Below, piece by piece: positions 22,597-42,922 of a stretch of 64,000 nt of DNA. The notes beneath the pieces were generated by a model. That model was not told where the DNA came from. It did no database searches and saw only the letters and a list, made by a program, of their open reading frames with translations. Source of the DNA: a virus (Duplodnaviria > Caudoviricetes). The position numbers were made by a program, and so were the translations under genes. The stretch covers positions 192,001 to 256,000 of IMG/VR virus record IMGVR_UViG_3300017700_000931; one strand, given 5' to 3'. Numbering within the stretch: position 1 is the first letter of the stretch; each line of letters begins with the position of its first letter.

Positions 22597-24147
22597 TTAG
22601 TTTCTAGGTTTCTCAACTCTATTAATCAAATCCATTATTCTCTTTGTTGAAGAATCAACATAGGCAGTATTCTCGTTTAATTGTTTTGAATTACTACTTG
22701 TTGCTTCTTTAATTATTTTACTCTCAATTGATTCAGCGATTGGTTTTTTAGAAGCCAATTCATTCACAATTGTTTTATATAACCTTTTAGATTCTTTGAT
22801 TGTTGTTACTTCTTCATCAAATCTTGCTATGATTGCTTCCTTCTCTTCTCTAGTAGTAGAGTGTTCAGTGAACAATCTTGTAACATTGGTTAAATTAGTA
22901 TTAAAAACTACTGTTTCTCCTAGCATTGTTCTAAATTTCTTAAGAGCACTTCTGAATTCATCATTTTGCTTTTTAAGTTCTCTAGCCTCAGCTAAAAGTC
23001 TATTATATTTTGCAACAGATTCAGCGGTAACATTACCGTCTTTAACATTGTTAGCTTTAGCACCAGCACCTTCAATTGAAGTTTTCTTGTTAGTTACATT
23101 TCTGCCTTTACCAACTTGAATTTTTTCGTCAATTGCTTCCTCACCTTCAACAACATCTTCCTCAGAAAGTTCTGATTCCATTACGTGTTCACCGTGATTA
23201 TCTCCAGCCGGAGCTCCATCGTCATCAAATCCACCTTCTAGATTATCTCCAGATGTATCTTTGTCAACAGGAGCTTTTTGTCCTTCAATATTACCTGAGT
23301 TACCACCTTTTGAGTTTTTACCCATAGTAACATCACTTGTTGCTGTTCTAACTTTGTCTTCTGTTATTTCTTCATTTTCAGAAACTTCTTCTTCGTCAAG
23401 TGCTATTTCATAAACAACACCTTCTTCGATACCTTCTTCTGTGGCCTCGGTATCAGAAGTATCCATGTACTCATCTTCAGCACCCAAATCCATTTCGGAA
23501 TCATCTTCCATTTCACCACCTAAGTCGGAACCCAAACTGCTATCCATTTCTGAATCATCGTCTGAATCTAATCCTAAACCTAAATCTAATCCGGTTGCGC
23601 CTCCTAATGCAGCTTCTTTTTTCCCACCCATTTTAACGTGGTACTCACTTCCGCTCACTGGGTCTTTAATGTGTACTTCATTATCAGAAACTACTTCAAT
23701 TTCATCATCTCCTGACAATTTCTTGTAAACAGAAATTACGTCTTCGTCAGATGCACCAGTCATGTCCAATTCATAATCTTCTTCAGATTCTTCTTCTCCA
23801 CCGTAGTTAATTTCACTACCTTGCGTGTCGTCCATTCCAGCCTCGTCATAGTCATCAGATGCATCATCTAATCCTAAATCTTCACCAGCTTCTTCTCCAG
23901 CTTCATCATCACCAGTAACATCGTCACCAGTTTCAGAATCAGCAGCAGCTAAATCTAATGTGTCTTCAGAATCATCAACATCTTCTTCTTCATAGTCATC
24001 CTCATTCAAGGATTCTTTCACCAAACCATCAATTTCTTCTCTCGCAACGGAACGAAGTATTTCTTTAGTATTGGAATTTAAAGCTTCTTGGATTCTTTTA
24101 GCATCCAAAAGTGCTTCTTCAATTATTGACTTTTTCTTTTCGGCCAT
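22597..24147 (-). CDS. Prohead core scaffold protein (gp22-like)
   Basis: Very acidic, coiled-coil C-term, many LxE sites, located between protease and capsid genes. Confidence 0.75.
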   Translation of the reverse strand: MAEKKKSIIEEALLDAKRIQEALNSNTKEILRSVAREEIDGLVKESLNEDDYEEEDVDDSEDTLDLAAADSETGDDVTGDDEAGEEAGEDLGLDDASDDYDEAGMDDTQGSEINYGGEEESEEDYELDMTGASDEDVISVYKKLSGDDEIEVVSDNEVHIKDPVSGSEYHVKMGGKKEAALGGATGLDLGLGLDSDDDSEMDSSLGSDLGGEMEDDSEMDLGAEDEYMDTSDTEATEEGIEEGVVYEIALDEEEVSENEEITEDKVRTATSDVTMGKNSKGGNSGNIEGQKAPVDKDTSGDNLEGGFDDDGAPAGDNHGEHVMESELSEEDVVEGEEAIDEKIQVGKGRNVTNKKTSIEGAGAKANNVKDGNVTAESVAKYNRLLAEARELKKQNDEFRSALKKFRTMLGETVVFNTNLTNVTRLFTEHSTTREEKEAIIARFDEEVTTIKESKRLYKTIVNELASKKPIAESIESKIIKEATSSNSKQLNENTAYVDSSTKRIMDLINRVEKPRN

Positions 24148-24273: not shown

Positions 24274-24969
24274 TTAACCCAGTAAAAATTTATTTAATTT
24301 ATCAACCAATAATGGTTTATCTTTTTTAGCTGATTCCACGAATGGCCTAGCTTCTTGAGTGTTGTTGAACATATATGCTCCCGGAGTACTAGGACTAGTT
24401 ACGATGTCCCAACAAATTAATTCAAAATCATCTTGAACAATATGTTTTCCATCAATTTCTTGTAGTGAACCAACACCTCTTGATGATACACCAACTCTAA
24501 TTCCTCTTCTCAACATATTAGCAACTCTATCACCTTCACAAGATATAATACCTTGTGTGATGAATCCGGGTGACATTAGTATTTCTATTTCACCAACAAG
24601 TGTTTTCCCTTCCCACCAAATTTTAGTAATTTCATGTGATACTCTATCGTTAGAAATGATAGAAGATTCAGGGTGGTCCGATTCACCAATAGCAGACCTA
24701 TTATTAATTAATTCTTGATAAGCCTCAGCTTGTTTTCTCAATAAATTTTCTGGATAAATTCTACCGTTTCTATTAACTACACCATATTTTTGTAGGATAA
24801 CAAATAACTTAAGTGGTTCAACCATTATAACAGAACCCTTCTCTAATTTTTTAACCTCAGTAATGAATGGTTGATTGCGGATATCGTTTGGAGCTATATA
24901 TCCGGCATCACTTTCAATCATAAGACCGAATCCAGTCTTACCAGCTTTTAATAATTTTATATCAGACAT
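24274..24969 (-). CDS. Prohead protease (T4 gp21-like)
   Basis: NRNGRIYP, AIGESDHPES, GVSSRGVGS, WDIVTSPSTPGA. Confidence 0.93.
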   Translation of the reverse strand: MSDIKLLKAGKTGFGLMIESDAGYIAPNDIRNQPFITEVKKLEKGSVIMVEPLKLFVILQKYGVVNRNGRIYPENLLRKQAEAYQELINNRSAIGESDHPESSIISNDRVSHEITKIWWEGKTLVGEIEILMSPGFITQGIISCEGDRVANMLRRGIRVGVSSRGVGSLQEIDGKHIVQDDFELICWDIVTSPSTPGAYMFNNTQEARPFVESAKKDKPLLVDKLNKFLLG

Positions 24970-33074: not shown

Positions 33075-33477
33075 TTTTTTTGACTTTATATTCTAGTACG
33101 AAATCTTTCTCGTACAAAGAGTCTTCAACAGACTTTATTGTTTGTCCAAATTTAAACCTAAGTCTAGAATTTGGGTATTCTTCATAATCAGAAATATCTT
33201 CCCAAGCTAATGCTATGATATCATCAACAGCATCCCAAACAGCAAAGGTGTCGCTATTTTGTACTGTTTCAAGCTTTAATTTTGAAGTCAATACACCAAC
33301 AGCCTTAACCAAATCTTTTCTAGGTGGGCTAGGTTGTCCCGATGCCGGATACAAGTCCCAATCTTCACCATCAATATTTTCTTTAGTATCTGAAAAAATG
33401 AATTCATAAATGTTCTCATTCTCCCAATCACTACCTAAAACATTTACATAAATCAAAAACAATCCGTCTTTATTCAT
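33058..33477 (-). CDS. Hypothetical protein
   Basis: Coupled ORF in late operon. Confidence 0.6.
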   Translation of the reverse strand: MNKDGLFLIYVNVLGSDWENENIYEFIFSDTKENIDGEDWDLYPASGQPSPPRKDLVKAVGVLTSKLKLETVQNSDTFAVWDAVDDIIALAWEDISDYEEYPNSRLRFKFGQTIKSVEDSLYEKDFVLEYKVKKNELKK

Positions 33478-34565
33478 TATTTTTTCTCTTCAATATAATC
33501 ATCAGCAACACCTGAAACATCCAAATTTGTTTCTGGATTACCATTAAATTCTACCTTCACAGTATAATTTTTCTCATCCGGTGCATCAACTGATTTATAA
33601 ATATAAAGCCATGGCTCATCGCTGTTAGTTGGCTTTTCAGTGTATTCACCTGAATTTTCAAACTTCATATCAATCTCATTGTCATCTAAACTAACTTTAA
33701 GAATTGCTATTTTGCTATCTAAAAATTTAACATCAATGATTTTACCACTAGCACCATTACCTTCAGATAATACATCAGATGCTTTAGGATTTGTTTTAGG
33801 TTGAATACTTGGCCTCCAAGGTTTTTGTCTTCTAGATGGTTTAACATCCGGTGTACTAGGTTTGATTGTTGGTTTAACAATCGGTTCTACTTCAGACATC
33901 TCATTTAACTTGCTCATAATTTTAGCTTTAGTCACAAAGTTACGCTTTTTTTCTGAATCTACCAACGATTTAGTCGGTGTTTTTCCCTCACCTAATTTAA
34001 AATTTTCTTCGGCAACATCTTCTCCACCTAAATCCGGTGCATCATTACCACCATCTCCATTGGTTGTATCAACATTAGCATCAGTATTATCTGAATTAGT
34101 ATCAACATCGACATTAACGTCTACATTATTTTTATCGTTACCAGCTGATTTAACCTTGTCAATGATATCCTTTTGGTCAGAATCATCCATTTGGCCTGTG
34201 TGAGTAGCTGAAAGAACTGAATTAACAGCAAATTTTTCTAAATCAAAATCAGGATTACCTTGTTGTCCACTATATGACCTCAATGATTGACCTAATTTAC
34301 CAGCTAATTGTTGTATGAATGTTTTTGGGTCTGATTCTTCATCAGCTTCAACACCAGCATCGAATGGTTCATCATCAAAAGGTTTATCATCAACTGGTGC
34401 ATCACCACCCATATCCTCTAAACTTCCTAAATCACCACCCATGTCTTCCAATCCATCCAATGAATTAGCATCAGGTGCTGGGGCTTGAGCCCCCAACTTT
34501 AATTTGAATTTTGTTTCATCGATATTATATCCATTTTCCTCATCAGAGAAAAGGCCAGTGGACAT
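33477..34565 (-). CDS. Acidic core-like protein; probable -1 frameshift extension of 34586..35419
   Basis: Its frame is open upstream through the slippery site at 34592-34604. Confidence 0.65.
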   Translation of the reverse strand: MSTGLFSDEENGYNIDETKFKLKLGAQAPAPDANSLDGLEDMGGDLGSLEDMGGDAPVDDKPFDDEPFDAGVEADEESDPKTFIQQLAGKLGQSLRSYSGQQGNPDFDLEKFAVNSVLSATHTGQMDDSDQKDIIDKVKSAGNDKNNVDVNVDVDTNSDNTDANVDTTNGDGGNDAPDLGGEDVAEENFKLGEGKTPTKSLVDSEKKRNFVTKAKIMSKLNEMSEVEPIVKPTIKPSTPDVKPSRRQKPWRPSIQPKTNPKASDVLSEGNGASGKIIDVKFLDSKIAILKVSLDDNEIDMKFENSGEYTEKPTNSDEPWLYIYKSVDAPDEKNYTVKVEFNGNPETNLDVSGVADDYIEEKK

Positions 34566-34569
34566 ACCA

Positions 34570-34604
34570 TCTAACTTAGTTTCAGTTAGACTTTTTTTTT
34601 TAAA
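34570..34604 (-). promoter_or_regulatory. Candidate -1 programmed ribosomal frameshift signal
   Basis: U UUA AAA heptamer within TTT-A10 run, followed about 7 nt later by stem TCTAACT/AGTTAGA. Confidence 0.65.
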
Positions 34605-35419
34605 GCTTCAGAAAGAGCTTTAATTTCTTGTGGAGTTAGGCTATTAAGCATTTTATTCAATCTATCTTCGTTTTCACCGATAGAAATTGCTTTACCTATT
34701 TTAAGTCTTTTGTTCACAAGGTAATCATCTGATTCATCAGAGTCACCATCGTTATCAACATCAGAATCTTCTTTACCAACTGCATCCAATGATTCACCAG
34801 TAATCATTTTATCAATTGCTTCTTCATCTTCAGTCAATTCAACATCGTCTTCTTTTATAATTTCAGTATCATGGCCAGCACCTCTTGCTTTACCAGTATT
34901 TTTTGAGCTAGCTTTTGGTTTTTCTTTAAAATCACCTTCTAGATTATCTCCAGATGTATCTTTGTCAACCGGAGCGGCATCACCATTCATGTCCTCTATT
35001 TCACCAACAAATCCCCAAGAACCACCAGCAATGGCATTATCTTCTTTAAGTAATCTATCGTTCTCAAATACATTAACTCTTTCACCACCAAATGATTCAT
35101 TGATGCTTAAGAATTTAAGATTTAATTGCTTAATAGCTTTTGCGTATGTTGGGTAAGCTTCAGCTTTTTTATTTTGAAGTCCACCAATATATTTAAAATC
35201 TTCAGTAACAAGATTAGATTTTTTATCAGATATCTTGATATAATATTCATGATTTTCTCTAACGATTCCGTAGACAACACCATTAGGCCCAACTTTTGTC
35301 AACTCAACAACAGAATTATTTGTAGATTCATTAACGAATGTACCCATCAATTGTCTGATACGGTCCAATTCTTGATTTCCTTTTAGACCTGTTGGTTTAA
35401 TTGTATTAATTTTCTTCAT
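34586..35419 (-). CDS. Putative prohead core/internal protein (short form, ends ALKKKV)
   Basis: Late motif at 35436; several LxE sites; shares 37 bp with scaffold gene. Confidence 0.6.
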   Translation of the reverse strand: MKKINTIKPTGLKGNQELDRIRQLMGTFVNESTNNSVVELTKVGPNGVVYGIVRENHEYYIKISDKKSNLVTEDFKYIGGLQNKKAEAYPTYAKAIKQLNLKFLSINESFGGERVNVFENDRLLKEDNAIAGGSWGFVGEIEDMNGDAAPVDKDTSGDNLEGDFKEKPKASSKNTGKARGAGHDTEIIKEDDVELTEDEEAIDKMITGESLDAVGKEDSDVDNDGDSDESDDYLVNKRLKIGKAISIGENEDRLNKMLNSLTPQEIKALSEALKKKV

Positions 35420-35958: not shown

Positions 35959-37074
35959 TTAGTTAGAAAGTTTTGCAATTATAGCCGGATGTGGGTCATA
36001 ATTTGAAATCTTAACGTTCTCATAACAATAAGTAAAAAGATTATCTGCTTTTTCTAGATTTAATTTGGGTAATTCTCTAGGCTCCCTAGATAATAATTCA
36101 TTTACTTGGTCAATATGATTCTTGTAAATATGCACATCACCTAACGACCCAATCAATTCATCTGGTACCATATTAACTTCCTTCGCAATCATATGTAATA
36201 GAAGTGCATATGATGCAATGTTAAATGGTAACCCCAAGAATGTATCAACTGAACGTTGAATCCATTTTAATGAAATAGCCCTAGTTGGTATATTAAATGA
36301 ATCAAAATATTCATGAGATTCTTTACTTCGTTCTAGAACTTCCGGTTTAGTCAAGCGATTAAAATATTCATCTCTACGTTCCTCTAAATCCAACACCCTT
36401 GTATTTAGTTCAAAACCATAGTGACACGGCGGCAATACCATATCTTTAATTTCACCAACATTCCACGCATTAACAATAAGCCTTCTAGAATCAGGATTAT
36501 TTTTCAATTCATTAATTAAATTTGCAATTTGATTTATACCTTTGAAATGAACACCCATATTACCAGCTCTATCAGCATGGCCAGCGGAGAAATAACCACC
36601 CCAGTTTACCCACTGCTTACCATAGATAGGTCCTAAATCACCCCATTTTTTTGCAAATGATTCAGACCCATATTCATGACAATTTTTTATCATATCTATA
36701 AAGTCTGCTTCGGATAAAATAATATCCTTGTTTTCACCATTCAATTTTTTAACCATCTGAGTTGTACCAGAAGCATTCCCTTTTTCAAATTCACTTTTAT
36801 AATGTTTATAAGCATCACCATTCCAAATGTGAACTCCATTATCTACAAGATATTTTATGTTCGTATCACCATTCAAAAACCATAGAAGTTCATGAACAAT
36901 ACCCTTCATATACATTTTCTTTGTGGTTAACAATGGAAATCCGTCTGACATTTTAAATCTAACATCTCTGGAAAAAACAGAAATGGTACCAGTTCCAGTT
37001 CTATCACTTTTACTAGTACCATTTTCTAAAATGTCTTTCAATAGTTTTTGGTAAACTACATCTACTTTATCCAT
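35959..37074 (-). CDS. thyA: Thymidylate synthase
   Basis: DRTGTGT, FPLLTTKK, ELLWFLNG, LGPIYGKQW, NPDSRRL, LPPCH, QRSVDTFLGLPFNIASY, HIYKNH. Confidence 0.97.
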   Translation of the reverse strand: MDKVDVVYQKLLKDILENGTSKSDRTGTGTISVFSRDVRFKMSDGFPLLTTKKMYMKGIVHELLWFLNGDTNIKYLVDNGVHIWNGDAYKHYKSEFEKGNASGTTQMVKKLNGENKDIILSEADFIDMIKNCHEYGSESFAKKWGDLGPIYGKQWVNWGGYFSAGHADRAGNMGVHFKGINQIANLINELKNNPDSRRLIVNAWNVGEIKDMVLPPCHYGFELNTRVLDLEERRDEYFNRLTKPEVLERSKESHEYFDSFNIPTRAISLKWIQRSVDTFLGLPFNIASYALLLHMIAKEVNMVPDELIGSLGDVHIYKNHIDQVNELLSREPRELPKLNLEKADNLFTYCYENVKISNYDPHPAIIAKLSN

Positions 37075-37498
37075 TCTTTTCGTTGTTTAATTTGGAAATT
37101 AAATATTGAATTTTAGTTAACAATGCTGCATCCATAACAGATTTGCTAGCATAGGTACTAATTGTTTTATCCATAGCTTTAATCAAATCACCCTCAATCA
37201 TTTTGATTTCATTTTCTTGATGTTTTTCAACTTCCTCAATGATTTTGCTTGGGTCTATTGCTTCACCTTGAGTGAATGGATACTTCTTAATCACTTCATT
37301 CAATACTTTACCTTGTGATTCAGCAATTTCAAATCTAGTGTAATCCGTAACCGGAACACCAGTATAAGTATAGTTGGTACCCTTAGCGAAAGTTATTGTC
37401 AAGGCTCCATTGGCTTTATCGTATTTTGAAGCTAATACGTTAGAAGATTTGTAAATCGATTTTACAATTCCATCTTTTTCTACTCTTTTTAAAATCAT
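37067..37498 (-). CDS. KTSC domain protein
   Basis: SSNV..SKYD...LTITF.KG..YTYTGVP..Y..F..AESQGK..N..IK. Confidence 0.85.
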   Translation of the reverse strand: MILKRVEKDGIVKSIYKSSNVLASKYDKANGALTITFAKGTNYTYTGVPVTDYTRFEIAESQGKVLNEVIKKYPFTQGEAIDPSKIIEEVEKHQENEIKMIEGDLIKAMDKTISTYASKSVMDAALLTKIQYLISKLNNEKNG

Positions 37499-37830: not shown

Positions 37831-40347
37831 ATGAAGAAGGATGTTCTACCGAAGGTAAAAATTGTTATGAAGAATGCCTTCGAAGAAGCGAAGGCTTTTA
37901 GTGATATTAAACTAAGACCGGAGCATATAATGATGTCAATGATTACTGATGATGACAACAAATGTGTTGATATCCTAAAAGAATTAAAGGTTGACTTAAG
38001 TGAATTATATGATAGATTGAGTAGATATTTGATTGAAAGTGATTTGATACCAAGAATTACTACTTCAGCAAATGTTGATTTACCACCAAGTGAACTAACA
38101 ACTAAAATTTTTAAAACAATTGATAACGAATGCGACGAATTAGGTGATGCCGCAATAGATTTAACACATATAATGTTAGCTATCTTAAATCAAGATTCAC
38201 CAACAACTAGTATCCTACTTGAAATGGGAGTAAACTATAAAAATTTCAAAAACCTTATTATGAATAAAAACGAAGAAACAAAAGGTTCATACGATGAATC
38301 AGATGAAATGAATGAAGGTTCTAAATCAATCAACAATAAGAAAAAAAACACGACAACGAAAACACCAGTTTTAGATAACTTCTGTAGGGACGTTAGTAAG
38401 GCTGCTGAAGATGGTTTAATTGACCCAGTAGTTGGTAGACATAATGAAATCAAACGTGTTTCAACAATCCTATCTAGAAGAAAGAAAAACAATCCAGTTT
38501 TAATTGGAGAACCCGGAGTTGGTAAAACTTCTATTGTAGAAGGATTAGCCCAACTTATCAAAGATAAAAAAGCACCAAGATGCCTTTTAGAAAAAAGAAT
38601 TTATTCATTGGACCTTGCTTCAATTGTTGCTGGTACAAAGTATCGTGGACAATTTGAAGAAAGAATGAAAGCGATTCTTGAAGAATTGAAAGAGAACCCA
38701 AATGTAGTATTGTTTATTGATGAGTTACATACCATCGTAGGTGCTGGTAATGCTAGTGGTTCGTTGGATGCATCCAATATCTTTAAACCAGCATTGGCTC
38801 GTGGTGAGATACAAGTAATTGGTGCTACAACACTTGATGAGTTCCGTGAAAACATCGAAAAAGATGGTGCATTAACTCGTAGATTCCAACAAGTTTTAAT
38901 TGAGGAACCGACTAACGAAGAAACTGTCACAATCCTTATGAATATTAAGGATAAATACGAAAATCACCACAAGGTTAAGTATACACGAGAAGCAATTGAA
39001 GAATGTGTTAAGATGGCTGATAGATATATCTCTGATAGAGCTATGCCAGACAAAGCAATCGATATTCTAGATGAAGCTGGAGCTATTACTAATGTTGACA
39101 TTGAAGTTCCAGATAATATTAAAAAATTAGAAATCAAAAAGGTTGAAATTGAAGCTAAAAAAGTTGCTGTTGTTGCAAAACAACAATATGAAGAAGCTGC
39201 TAAATTGAGAGATGACGAAAAGAAAGTTGAGGAAGATATTGAAAAAGCTAAAAAAGAATGGATTGAAAGTTTAGATAAAGAACGAACAATCATTACTGTT
39301 GAATTGGTTGCCGAAGTAGTTTCCAATATGACTGGTATTCCACTTAGTAAAGTTTCAACTGAAGACACTAAACAATTGGCTCAAATGGAAGCTAATCTTT
39401 CTGGAGCTGTAATCGGACAAGATGAGGCTGTTATTAAGGTTTCTAAAGCAATCAAAAGAAGTAGATTGGGGATTAGAAAAGGTGGTAAACCAATCGGTTC
39501 ATTTATTTTCTTAGGACCAACTGGTGTAGGTAAAACTTATCTGGCCAAATTACTCGCCGAATATGTTTTTGGTGATAAAGATGCGTTGGTTCGTATTGAT
39601 ATGAGTGAATACATGGAGAAATTCTCTACATCCAGATTAATCGGGGCACCTCCGGGGTATGTCGGATATGAAGAAGGTGGTAAATTGACTGAAGCAATTC
39701 GTCGTAAACCTTACTCAGTCGTATTGTTTGATGAAATTGAAAAAGCACATCCTGATGTCTTCAATCTATTATTACAATTACTAGATGAAGGACAACTTAC
39801 TGATTCACTTGGACGTAAAATCGATTTCAAAAATACTATGGTAATCATGACATCAAATATTGGTGTTAAAGAATTGAATAGTTTTGGAACTGCGGTTGGA
39901 TTTGCTACTGGTGATACTATCGTAAAAGAAGAAAAAAGAGCTCACGATATTATCGAAAAAGCACTAAAGAAAAAATTCCCACCAGAATTTCTTAATCGTT
40001 TGGATGATACAATCATCTTCAATTCATTGAAAGAAGAAGACATTCATAAAATCATTAAAATTGAAATTAAAGATGTCGAAAGTAGAATGGCCGAACTTGG
40101 TTATAAAATTAAGTTAGACAAAAAAGGGATGGAATATATTGCCAAACAAGGTTACGACCAAGAATTTGGTGCCAGACCATTAAGTCGTGCAATTCAAAGA
40201 TACATCGAAGATACAATTGCCGATGAAGTGATTAATGGGAATGTCCAACAAGGGGATACCATCAAAATTAGTTACAATAAAACTAAGGATGAAATGGTCA
40301 TCAGCACGGAAAAATCTTCCAAGGAAGAAACTACCGATGAAGAGTAA
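37831..40347 (+). CDS. clpC: ATP-dependent Clp protease ATP-binding subunit, ClpC type
   Basis: Clp N-domain, GEPGVGKT/IDELH (D1), UVR-like QQYEEAAKLRD, GPTGVGKT/FDEIEKAHPDV (D2), AVGF ClpP-docking loop, GARPL. Confidence 0.93.
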   Translation: MKKDVLPKVKIVMKNAFEEAKAFSDIKLRPEHIMMSMITDDDNKCVDILKELKVDLSELYDRLSRYLIESDLIPRITTSANVDLPPSELTTKIFKTIDNECDELGDAAIDLTHIMLAILNQDSPTTSILLEMGVNYKNFKNLIMNKNEETKGSYDESDEMNEGSKSINNKKKNTTTKTPVLDNFCRDVSKAAEDGLIDPVVGRHNEIKRVSTILSRRKKNNPVLIGEPGVGKTSIVEGLAQLIKDKKAPRCLLEKRIYSLDLASIVAGTKYRGQFEERMKAILEELKENPNVVLFIDELHTIVGAGNASGSLDASNIFKPALARGEIQVIGATTLDEFRENIEKDGALTRRFQQVLIEEPTNEETVTILMNIKDKYENHHKVKYTREAIEECVKMADRYISDRAMPDKAIDILDEAGAITNVDIEVPDNIKKLEIKKVEIEAKKVAVVAKQQYEEAAKLRDDEKKVEEDIEKAKKEWIESLDKERTIITVELVAEVVSNMTGIPLSKVSTEDTKQLAQMEANLSGAVIGQDEAVIKVSKAIKRSRLGIRKGGKPIGSFIFLGPTGVGKTYLAKLLAEYVFGDKDALVRIDMSEYMEKFSTSRLIGAPPGYVGYEEGGKLTEAIRRKPYSVVLFDEIEKAHPDVFNLLLQLLDEGQLTDSLGRKIDFKNTMVIMTSNIGVKELNSFGTAVGFATGDTIVKEEKRAHDIIEKALKKKFPPEFLNRLDDTIIFNSLKEEDIHKIIKIEIKDVESRMAELGYKIKLDKKGMEYIAKQGYDQEFGARPLSRAIQRYIEDTIADEVINGNVQQGDTIKISYNKTKDEMVISTEKSSKEETTDEE

Positions 40348-41834: not shown

Positions 41835-42257
41835 TTATGCAACTTTTTCACCTATAAATTCATAACTAAAGCAGACCCTTTTATTGTCAACATAGTGATT
41901 CTTAAATAGATTGGTGTGATTCACATCGATTCTTAGCTTCTTATTTTTAGTGGTCGGTTTCCATAATGGAGAATGTTGCATATAATATCCCATTCTGGGG
42001 TGGGCCGCTCTAGAAAAGAACCTCTTACCTTCGTCAAGGTGTAATTGAGCACAAGCGTTAATAAACCTAACCCCGATACCCAAGCCTTGATAATCAGGTA
42101 ATATGACAACCCTATGGCCACGCCACGCATTTTTAACATATCCAGTTGGCATTGCAATACTGGCTAAAAAACCAACCACATTACCGTTCCATGTGGCAAC
42201 ATAACATCTGGTCGCAACATGTAAGTCATCATTTAAATAATGATGCTCTTTAAACAT
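41835..42257 (-). CDS. GNAT-like acetyltransferase (C-terminal half of ATPase-GNAT)
   Basis: W.MFKEHHYL, RGHRVVILPDYQGLGIG, HPRMG. Confidence 0.8.
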   Translation of the reverse strand: MFKEHHYLNDDLHVATRCYVATWNGNVVGFLASIAMPTGYVKNAWRGHRVVILPDYQGLGIGVRFINACAQLHLDEGKRFFSRAAHPRMGYYMQHSPLWKPTTKNKKLRIDVNHTNLFKNHYVDNKRVCFSYEFIGEKVA

Positions 42258-42922
42258 GGGCCAGATACTGCGATTTGCTCTATGTATTTGGAGATTGATT
42301 TCTGGTCGGACAAAAAAAAACCATCGTAGATTTCTCCATTATTAGCATTTATTACCCAGTCCGGTTCTAACCAATCAATCACATCATCATGACAAGTAGC
42401 AATAACCACGTTTTTTATATTATTTTTTTTAATGTATTTTGAAAGAGATACTGATGCAGCCTTCGCTACATTTCTATCTACAACCGACGTGAATTCATCC
42501 AATACTGCATTGTCTTTAATTTTTCTGGCTAAATCGGCCCTAAATTTTTCACCATTGGATAACACATGGTATGGTTTATACCAACTTGGGATAGTATTCA
42601 ATCCAACGGCACCTAATTTATTTATAGCTTCATCTGGCGTATCAAAATGAGACATGATGGATTTATTTATTTCCCAGCTAGGTTGTAATTCTTGACCAAA
42701 TTCATTCAATAGGGTACTTTTTCCAGAACCACTGGAGCCATAAATAACGCCAATATTAAATTCAGATGGTAATAGTTTTGGTTTTTCCCATGGGAAGAAT
42801 CTTGAGGTTCCGTCAAAAGTACAATCAAATGCTTTCTCACTAGCCATGATAAACTCATCCTTTTCAACGGACGAAGTTAGTGGTATTAGTTGTTTTGATA
42901 ATTGTTCTATGATATTCCTCAT
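42233..42922 (-). CDS. ABC-type ATPase (N-terminal half of ATPase-GNAT)
   Basis: GSSGSGKST, LSNGEKFRA signature, LDEFTSVVDR, ATCHDDVIDWLEPDW. Confidence 0.88.
   Translation of the reverse strand: MRNIIEQLSKQLIPLTSSVEKDEFIMASEKAFDCTFDGTSRFFPWEKPKLLPSEFNIGVIYGSSGSGKSTLLNEFGQELQPSWEINKSIMSHFDTPDEAINKLGAVGLNTIPSWYKPYHVLSNGEKFRADLARKIKDNAVLDEFTSVVDRNVAKAASVSLSKYIKKNNIKNVVIATCHDDVIDWLEPDWVINANNGEIYDGFFLSDQKSISKYIEQIAVSGPCLKSIII
42312..42322 (-). promoter_or_regulatory. Candidate -1 frameshift slippery run GG-U9-G
   Basis: -1 frame reads FFFVRPEINLQIHRANRSIWPMFKEHHYL, in frame with the GNAT ORF. Confidence 0.65.

Follow-up and report, generated by a model that had tools for sequence, protein, structure and literature searches.

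A conserved run of ten adenines at the junction of two overlapping frames in a T4-related phage gene is very probably a site of programmed recoding

The window analysed here is a stretch of 64,000 nucleotides of viral DNA (bases 192001-256000 of the complete 362,532-bp record IMGVR_UViG_3300017700_000931, which has direct terminal repeats and 33% G+C), and the element under study is a gene on its minus strand that is divided into two overlapping open reading frames, ORF1 and ORF2, meeting at a run of ten adenines (A10). The source is an uncultivated, T4-related phage of about 362 kb. Coordinates are those of the window unless stated otherwise, and the features of the junction are the following.

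34586-35419, minus strand: ORF1 (zero frame), 277 amino acids (aa); from the sequence, an AlphaFold2 (AF2) model and a 71-sequence alignment.
34592-34601, minus strand: A10 run; read from the letters, kept as A9-A12 across relatives.
33477-34607, minus strand: -1 frame, 376 codons including the part that overlaps ORF1; would give the C-terminal 371 residues of the fusion.
34608-34610, minus strand: TGA that closes the -1 frame just upstream of A10; from the sequence.
34586-34588, minus strand: TAA stop of ORF1, 3 nt (one codon) beyond A10; from the sequence.
34585-34583, minus strand: TGA of the +1 frame, an immediate stop after the run; from the sequence.
34569-34591, minus strand: hairpin of 8 bp including a G-U pair, with a 7-nt loop, directly 3' of A10; predicted by RNAfold.
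34563-34565, minus strand: ATG called as the start of ORF2 by the ORF finder, an internal Met of the predicted fusion; kept in the window's subclade only.
34494-34523, minus strand: near-invariant N-terminal motif of ORF2, I-D-E-T-K-F-K-L-K-L; from the alignment of relatives.

The 3' end of ORF1 reads GCT TTA AAA AAA AAA GTC TAA on the minus strand, such that its C-terminus is L-K-K-K-V followed by the stop. Because the TGA at 34610-34608 closes the -1 frame, any shift into that frame has to take place within 34607-34589; after the TGA the frame reads SFKKKSLTETKLDGMSTGLF... and is open to 33477. A shift within A10 would join 276 residues to 371, giving a 647-aa fusion in which ...ALKKK is followed by SLTETK.... 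The ATG at 34565, from which the ORF finder derives a 362-aa ORF2, lies 21 nt past the ORF1 stop. A10 is the sole homopolymer of ten in the window, and the whole genome contains one further run of at least ten, an A12 with no long ORF around it. An original prediction, made from the letters of the window, had described the end of ORF1, the A10 run, a T TTA AAA heptamer at 34604-34598, the TGA, the open -1 frame and a downstream stem, and all of these readings were confirmed.

Relatives were obtained by placing both ORFs with tblastn in 159 loci of the IMG/VR database (designated here by L numbers), which collapsed to 99 distinct junction sequences. These relatives are numerous, and several of them come from contigs 200-360 kb long. 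In 97 of the 99 non-redundant junctions ORF2 is offset by -1 from ORF1, with an overlap of 10-67 nt; the two exceptions are L137, which has a single continuous frame, and L067, which has A9 and a +1 offset. The ORF1 proteins of the relatives share 42-74% sequence identity with that of the window and range from 182 to 569 aa, yet the frame relation is constant, and the -1 offset has therefore survived many insertions and deletions. Alignments of the relatives show that ORF1 and ORF2 are each conserved as proteins. A pattern scan of Joint Genome Institute (JGI) metagenome contigs added seven further true relatives, all seven of which have A10 and the -1 arrangement. A homopolymer error in a single assembly was considered as the cause of the split and ruled out, the same run and frame offset being present in about 100 independent assemblies. 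Among 50,697 GenBank phage records, no DNA or protein match to ORF1 or ORF2 was found, and there was no cultured relative.

The run itself is the most constant feature of the junction. In the 97 relatives with the -1 arrangement it is A10 in 84 (87%), A9 in nine, A11 in three and A12 in one, always unbroken and never shorter than nine. Its phase is variable: its first A falls on codon position 3 in 76 relatives, on position 1 in 15 and on position 2 in six, and the codon before it is most often TTA (49) or GTA (13), with TCA, GGA, CCA, CAA, GGT, AGT and others also found. Since the run can start at any codon position, the conserved item is the run and not a phased heptamer. Elsewhere in the same genes AAA accounts for 79% of the Lys codons, yet only four of 73 KKK triplets are spelled with nine consecutive A's, compared with an unbroken run in 97 of 97 junctions; long runs are thus generally avoided and strictly kept at the junction. 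These counts, together with the varying phase and with fused, run-less relatives that have no KKK (see below), argue that the run is under selection at the nucleotide level beyond the need to encode protein. The zero and +1 frames both stop within one to three codons past the run, and the ORF1 stop lies 3 nt after it in 49 of the 97.

The N-terminus of the ORF2 part follows the consensus [LIV]-x-E-(T)-K-[YF]-K-L-K, which in many relatives starts only 3-10 residues past the run. A strict pattern located this motif in 61 of the 97 relatives, the rest being inspected by eye. No ATG, GTG or TTG is present between the stop in the -1 frame and the motif in 43 of the 61, so that start-less relatives number at least 43 by the strict pattern and make up approximately three quarters of the 97 when the remaining sequences are judged by eye. 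With so many relatives devoid of a start codon, the ORF2 product would be made only as a fusion. In the subclade of the window an extra segment, S-L-x-E-T-K-x-D-G-M-S-T-G-L-F..., separates the run from the motif. Conservation of this segment extends across the ATG, the residues encoded in the -1 frame before it (S-L-x-E-T-K-x-D-G) being kept as well as those after it. The central claim of the original prediction, a -1-recoded gene with products of 277 and about 647 aa, is thus in keeping with both the frame arrangement in 97 of 99 relatives and the many relatives in which ORF2 has no start.

Several relatives encode the two parts in one frame. The L137 clade combines the N-terminal domain of ORF1 and the core of ORF2 in a single frame, without the run and without KKK. 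In L240, from a contig of 352 kb, and in L242, the run is A11 and the frame continues through it with exactly the predicted ...KKKS... junction, and L241 and L291 read through in frame with A10 in another phase (phase 0). The existence of these natural one-frame relatives indicates that the fusion is a functional protein, with the split form and its slip-prone run appearing as the common state. An uninterrupted fusion or 11 A's in relatives had been named in the original prediction as grounds for taking the split as an error; such cases are the rare exceptions (the L137 clade, L240 and L242), and they speak for a functional fusion and are not evidence that the split form is an error.

Two further gene relatives, the sole two matches among genome contigs, were found on contigs that are probably phage. 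L292 is on a 103-kb contig binned as a Methanobacterium metagenome-assembled genome and has A9 with the -1 arrangement; L293 comes from a Prochlorococcus single-cell assembly, where its contig measures 64 kb, and has both parts in one frame. The two matches are too thin to name a host and provide a weak hint at most.

The original prediction had attributed the shift to a U UUA AAA heptamer stimulated by the downstream stem-loop, and expected related phages to keep the phase of the A-run and the hairpin. The run and the frame offset are indeed kept. The heptamer, however, is in phase in only 29 of the 97 relatives, where the preceding codon varies, and neither the phase nor the hairpin is conserved. 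The stem-loop is real in the window: TCTAACT (34590-34584) pairs with AGTTAGA (34576-34570) around a 7-nt loop, RNAfold adds a closing G-U pair (34591-34569), and the predicted free energy of -7.9 kcal/mol (z = -3.9) was not equalled by any of 200 shuffled sequences. When this hairpin was laid on 16 close relatives, 45.3% of the cells could pair, compared with 44.5% in shuffles, and even the closest relatives (L240, L283 and L001) have a different 3' arm. More generally, the 45 nt downstream of the run at 98 junctions (97 relatives and the window) fold about as well as shuffled sequences, with a mean z of -0.47. A hairpin of the nascent RNA in the 45 nt upstream of the run, a potential stimulator of slippage, gave no signal either (mean z -0.52). 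These comparisons mark the hairpin as a peculiarity of the window's genome and not a conserved stimulator.

A second homopolymer junction is present in the window.

42312-42320, minus strand: run of nine U's (U9; GGT TTT TTT TTG); kept in most relatives.

The U9 run, at 42320-42312, joins an ABC-ATPase-like ORF (42922..42233) to a GNAT-like ORF in the -1 frame (..41835), also on the minus strand, and both halves match the same family, phrog_11143. The -1 arrangement is found in 50 of 59 relatives of this junction, approximately 45 of which have a run of precisely T9. T10 is found in two relatives, both of them in frame, and more distant ones encode a fusion with no run at all. What the -1 frame encodes immediately past U9 (V-R-P-E-I-x-L-x-I) is homologous to these run-less fusions. 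Three loci, L165, L217 and L224, show the -1 offset at a U9-type junction without any T-run and with no evident way to shift.

The A10 run is also found at another position within the A10 gene family. In L286-L290, a marine lineage represented by at least five independent assemblies, the frame continues through the usual A10, and a second run, in the context TTA AAA AAA AAA GAG AAG TAA, closes the gene, while the -1 frame runs on for more than 170 codons.

1893-1902 and 1890-2411 of L287, as an example: second A10 and the -1 module of the marine lineage; module matched by protein comparison.

The continuation shares 59% identity (E 4e-26) with residues 505-585 of the ORF2 of another relative. 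It carries the pattern K..V.V...G...FG...RH.C...YW.C; the module, which gives a weak match to DUF5754, is internal to the ORF2 of others and absent from that of the window. The placement of A10 at a different module boundary in this lineage suggests that the cassette is portable.

Taken together, the comparisons make it very probable that the gene is subject to programmed recoding at the run, whether by the polymerase or by the ribosome. The sequences themselves show the arrangement and its conservation, selection on the nucleotides of the run, the missing ORF2 start in many relatives and the natural in-frame fusions; the level of the slip (RNA or ribosome), the ratio of the products and the role of the protein are what we infer. 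RNA-polymerase slippage is, on balance, the probable main source of the shift. Standard decoding would yield the 277-aa ORF1 protein, while a fixed minority of expression would enter the -1 frame within A10 and yield the 647-aa fusion. In the proposed mechanism, slippage of the host RNA polymerase on the run introduces one extra A into some of the mRNAs, and these are translated in the usual way; translation of transcripts with any other run length would end within one to three codons and give short, ORF1-like products. A bare run of at least nine A's would suffice, with no need for a particular upstream codon or downstream structure. Bacterial RNA polymerase slips efficiently on runs of nine A or T, and its RNA-DNA hybrid is 9-10 bp (PMC5009743). 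Polymerase slippage is favoured because the minimum of nine and the mode of ten in run length fit a hybrid of this size, whereas a ribosomal tandem slip needs only seven; because no stimulator is conserved; and because a U site of nine next to an A site of ten agrees with the report that the E. coli polymerase needs at least seven T's and a larger number of A's (PMC6260861). Within the complete genome no RNA polymerase beta-prime domain was found; a search for a T7-type polymerase also gave no match, but the control genomes gave none either, so this search was uninformative.

Several points weigh against placing the slip at the level of transcription. Any A-run of at least seven holds an in-phase A AAA AAA, as is the case in all relatives, and a -1 slip of the ribosome would produce an identical protein and is also compatible with all of these comparisons. 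Run length is the sole discriminator between polymerase and ribosome, and it is indirect. In-frame A9-A10 runs occur inside the ORF2 of some relatives (11 cases), such that runs of this kind are tolerated elsewhere, and the locally significant hairpin of the window could contribute some ribosomal slippage in this particular phage. A ribosomal -1 frameshift on the run, by tandem slippage on A AAA AAA or by sliding on AAA codons, with or without the hairpin and with the mRNA remaining A10, is a serious alternative, although a less probable one; the U UUA AAA and stem-loop model of the original prediction is a special case of it. Besides the heptamer in every relative, it draws on the sliding of E. 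coli ribosomes on homopolymeric A stretches (PMC4363877), on the position of the ORF1 stop 3 nt past the run in half of the relatives and on the order of elements in the window, where U UUA AAA is followed after 7 nt by the significant hairpin. Against this, seven A's would be enough for the ribosome, yet no relative has fewer than nine and most have exactly ten, while the U UUA AAA phase is kept in a minority and the hairpin is lost even in the closest relatives. The stem is also weak, with two G-C pairs in eight, and begins directly after the run, too close for the last heptamer, and no conserved upstream Shine-Dalgarno (SD)-like element was seen by eye (uncounted).

Variation at the DNA level, in which replication slippage would toggle between A10 (split) and A11 (fused) within a population, might account for the in-frame A11 alleles of L240 and L242, the in-frame phase-0 A10 alleles of L241 and L291 and the two in-frame T10 relatives at the U9 site. 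It is very improbable nevertheless, given that the out-of-frame length is the one found in 97 of 99 IMG/VR and seven of seven metagenome assemblies and that purifying selection on ORF2 over 40-70% divergence could not be sustained by rare variants. Moreover, the A11 of L240 may itself be a homopolymer error: its contig name (contig_31977) may be that of a long-read assembler, and such assemblies are prone to homopolymer errors. Least credible of all, and close to dismissible, is the absence of any recoding, whether through assembly error, a decaying pseudogene or two separate genes with ORF2 starting from the ATG at 34565. That ATG, 21 nt past the ORF1 stop and kept in the subclade, is what such a reading has in its favour, but the residues encoded before it in the -1 frame are conserved as well, many relatives lack a start codon and natural one-frame fusions exist; the recurrence of run and offset in about 100 independent assemblies, with both ORFs conserved, is also contrary to error or decay.

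If slippage by the polymerase is taken as the source of the shift, the closest parallel is dnaX of Thermus thermophilus (tau/gamma), which likewise has a 9-10-nt coding homopolymer (a run of nine) with no conserved flanking stimulator, two products that share an N-terminus and nearby stops in the frames that do not continue (Atkins et al. 2016, PMC5009743). There, however, the long product is in frame and slippage truncates it, whereas here the short product is the one encoded in the DNA, to be extended, as proposed, by slippage. The in-frame alleles L241 and L286-L291 resemble dnaX in this respect. The proteins are unrelated, and for the phage gene slippage at the RNA level is a proposed mechanism. 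E. coli dnaX and the transposases of the IS3 family (A AAA AAG, flanked by an SD on the upstream side and a stem-loop on the downstream side) also shift to -1 on an A-rich lysine site and make two products in a set ratio, but they use 7-nt heptamers with conserved stimulators, in contrast to the run of at least nine, of variable phase and without a conserved stimulator, found here. Shigella mxiE and spa13 and Citrobacter rodentium tssM (PMC4256274) are bacterial genes that transcriptional slippage rescues or regulates; their runs of about nine or more A or T at frame junctions likewise produce two length variants. They are confined to a single species or a narrow group, whereas the A10 site persists in about 100 divergent lineages of phages and a second gene of the genome has a site of this kind.

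Among phage systems, lambda gpG/gpGT (cited in PMC5009743) shares the two-ORF -1 arrangement across very divergent phages, with a second ORF that has no start codon and is expressed solely in fused form. The sequences are not similar, and the slip signal here is a homopolymer. An assignment of the gene as a tail assembly chaperone of the G/GT type was rejected, the locus lying between thymidylate synthase and terminase and not between the tail tube and tape-measure genes. The 10A/10B capsid proteins of T7 and the major head protein of Lactobacillus phage A2 (cited in PMC10885494) are likewise short and C-terminally extended products of a late region; in the present case there is no match to a capsid family or fold, and the added part exceeds the base protein in length. 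Literature searches turned up neither this gene family nor programmed homopolymer slippage in phages of this kind, nor any account of tailed phages that regularly use programmed transcriptional slippage for expression. The nearest statement found was a suggestion that transcriptional slippage might allow a Campylobacter phage to bypass a poly-A frameshift in a methyltransferase gene (PMC2853527).

It is possible, and we propose it tentatively, that this clade uses bare A10 and U9 runs as portable, structure-independent transcriptional-slippage cassettes at the module boundaries of several genes, with the length of the run tuned to the A and U thresholds of the host polymerase. A series of nested proteins in fixed proportions would then arise from one gene, and single-base changes would move the junction or flip the outcome between extension and truncation. 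If the slip is indeed transcriptional, programmed transcriptional slippage extends to genes of the structural region of tailed phages, and a simple search rule follows, namely an unbroken A or T run of at least nine at a -1 junction. Gene callers divide the locus into two 'hypothetical proteins' and assign a false start to ORF2 in many relatives, so that a large modular family of phage proteins is probably mis-annotated in public viral catalogues. Moreover, the site offers a clean natural test case for slippage by polymerase versus ribosome, being a bare A10 with no conserved helper in about 100 lineages, with the U9 twin in the same genome and the in-frame and relocated variants as natural controls.

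The supposition that runs of at least nine occur in coding sequence only at such junctions holds in the 64-kb window, but fails genome-wide and in some relatives. L007, L009, L079 and L158 have an in-frame A9 about 60 residues before the end of ORF2, in the context ..C AAA AAA AAA TG. TAT.., and the alternative frames there are short. Outside the window, A9 runs (minus-strand reading) at genome positions 94424-94432, 135321-135329 and 84717-84725 lie in frame within ORFs of about 440, 208 and 243 codons, respectively, also with short alternative frames. These three may be truncating slip sites of the dnaX type or may simply be tolerated.

Upstream of the A10 gene are the genes for thymidylate synthase and a KTSC protein. 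Downstream, and all on its strand, are three ORFs of no known function, TerL and a T4-type portal, and further on the genes for a gp21-like protease, for a protein of 516 aa and for the major capsid protein. The 516-aa gene, between the protease and the major capsid genes, is in the position of a scaffold. The gene order is shared with L240-L242, and the KTSC, thymidylate synthase and recoded genes are in the same order in the distant L241 and L242.

24274-24969: gp21-like protease (phrog_207).
34933-34969, minus strand: 37 bp of ORF1 that recur exactly at 23232-23268, within the 516-aa scaffold-position gene; sequence match.
37067-37498, minus strand: KTSC-domain protein, adjoining thymidylate synthase.
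37831-40347, plus strand: full-length ClpB/ClpA-like double AAA+ ATPase, 838 aa.

A role in head assembly or as an internal protein is plausible from the gene context. Neither ORF matched a known head-protein family, and 'prohead core protein', the label used in the original prediction, stays conjectural. No sequence or fold similarity was found to gp22, gp67, gp68, the internal proteins or any other known head-core family of the T4 type. Pfam gave no family match for either ORF; in PHROGs, ORF2 had no match and the C-terminal half of ORF1 matched only families of no known function. No informative match came from Foldseek against the PDB, from profile searches of the PDB or from the ESM Atlas, and the same was true of VIA-align, for which only the ORF2 model was used. 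The LTE at the new junction, put forward as a protease-type site, is not specific, as [LIV]-x-E occurs 19 times in the fusion. The [LIV]-x-E that precedes the conserved TKYKLK motif in 52 of the 61 scored relatives would fit a site for the gp21-type prohead protease ([LI]-x-E), a candidate gene for which is present, but so frequent a tripeptide carries little weight.

Both parts of the predicted fusion are acidic, D+E making up about 20%, and consist for the most part of disordered sequence interspersed with small folded modules. ORF1 has a folded N-terminal domain (residues ~35-110) followed by an acidic, mostly disordered half, and AF2 was confident only for ORF1 residues 35-110 and, in the ORF2 frame, for helices at 94-156 and a beta domain at 286-375. 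An acidic loop of the D-x-D/N-x-D-G type is found near ORF1 residues 217-232 (DVDNDGDSDESD; 34730-34770), in the region that matches PHROGs 4359, 38880 and 3326, and another at residues ~425-436 of the L137 ORF (DLNKDGKLSDYE). Both loops resemble calcium-binding loops of the EF-hand type.

ORF1 also shows a local similarity of 63 residues, including an EEAID motif, to the scaffold-position gene (E 1e-8). Within this similarity lies the exact 37-bp repeat (23232-23268 and 34933-34969), which encodes APVDKDTSGDNLEG and suggests either a shared module or gene conversion between the two late genes.

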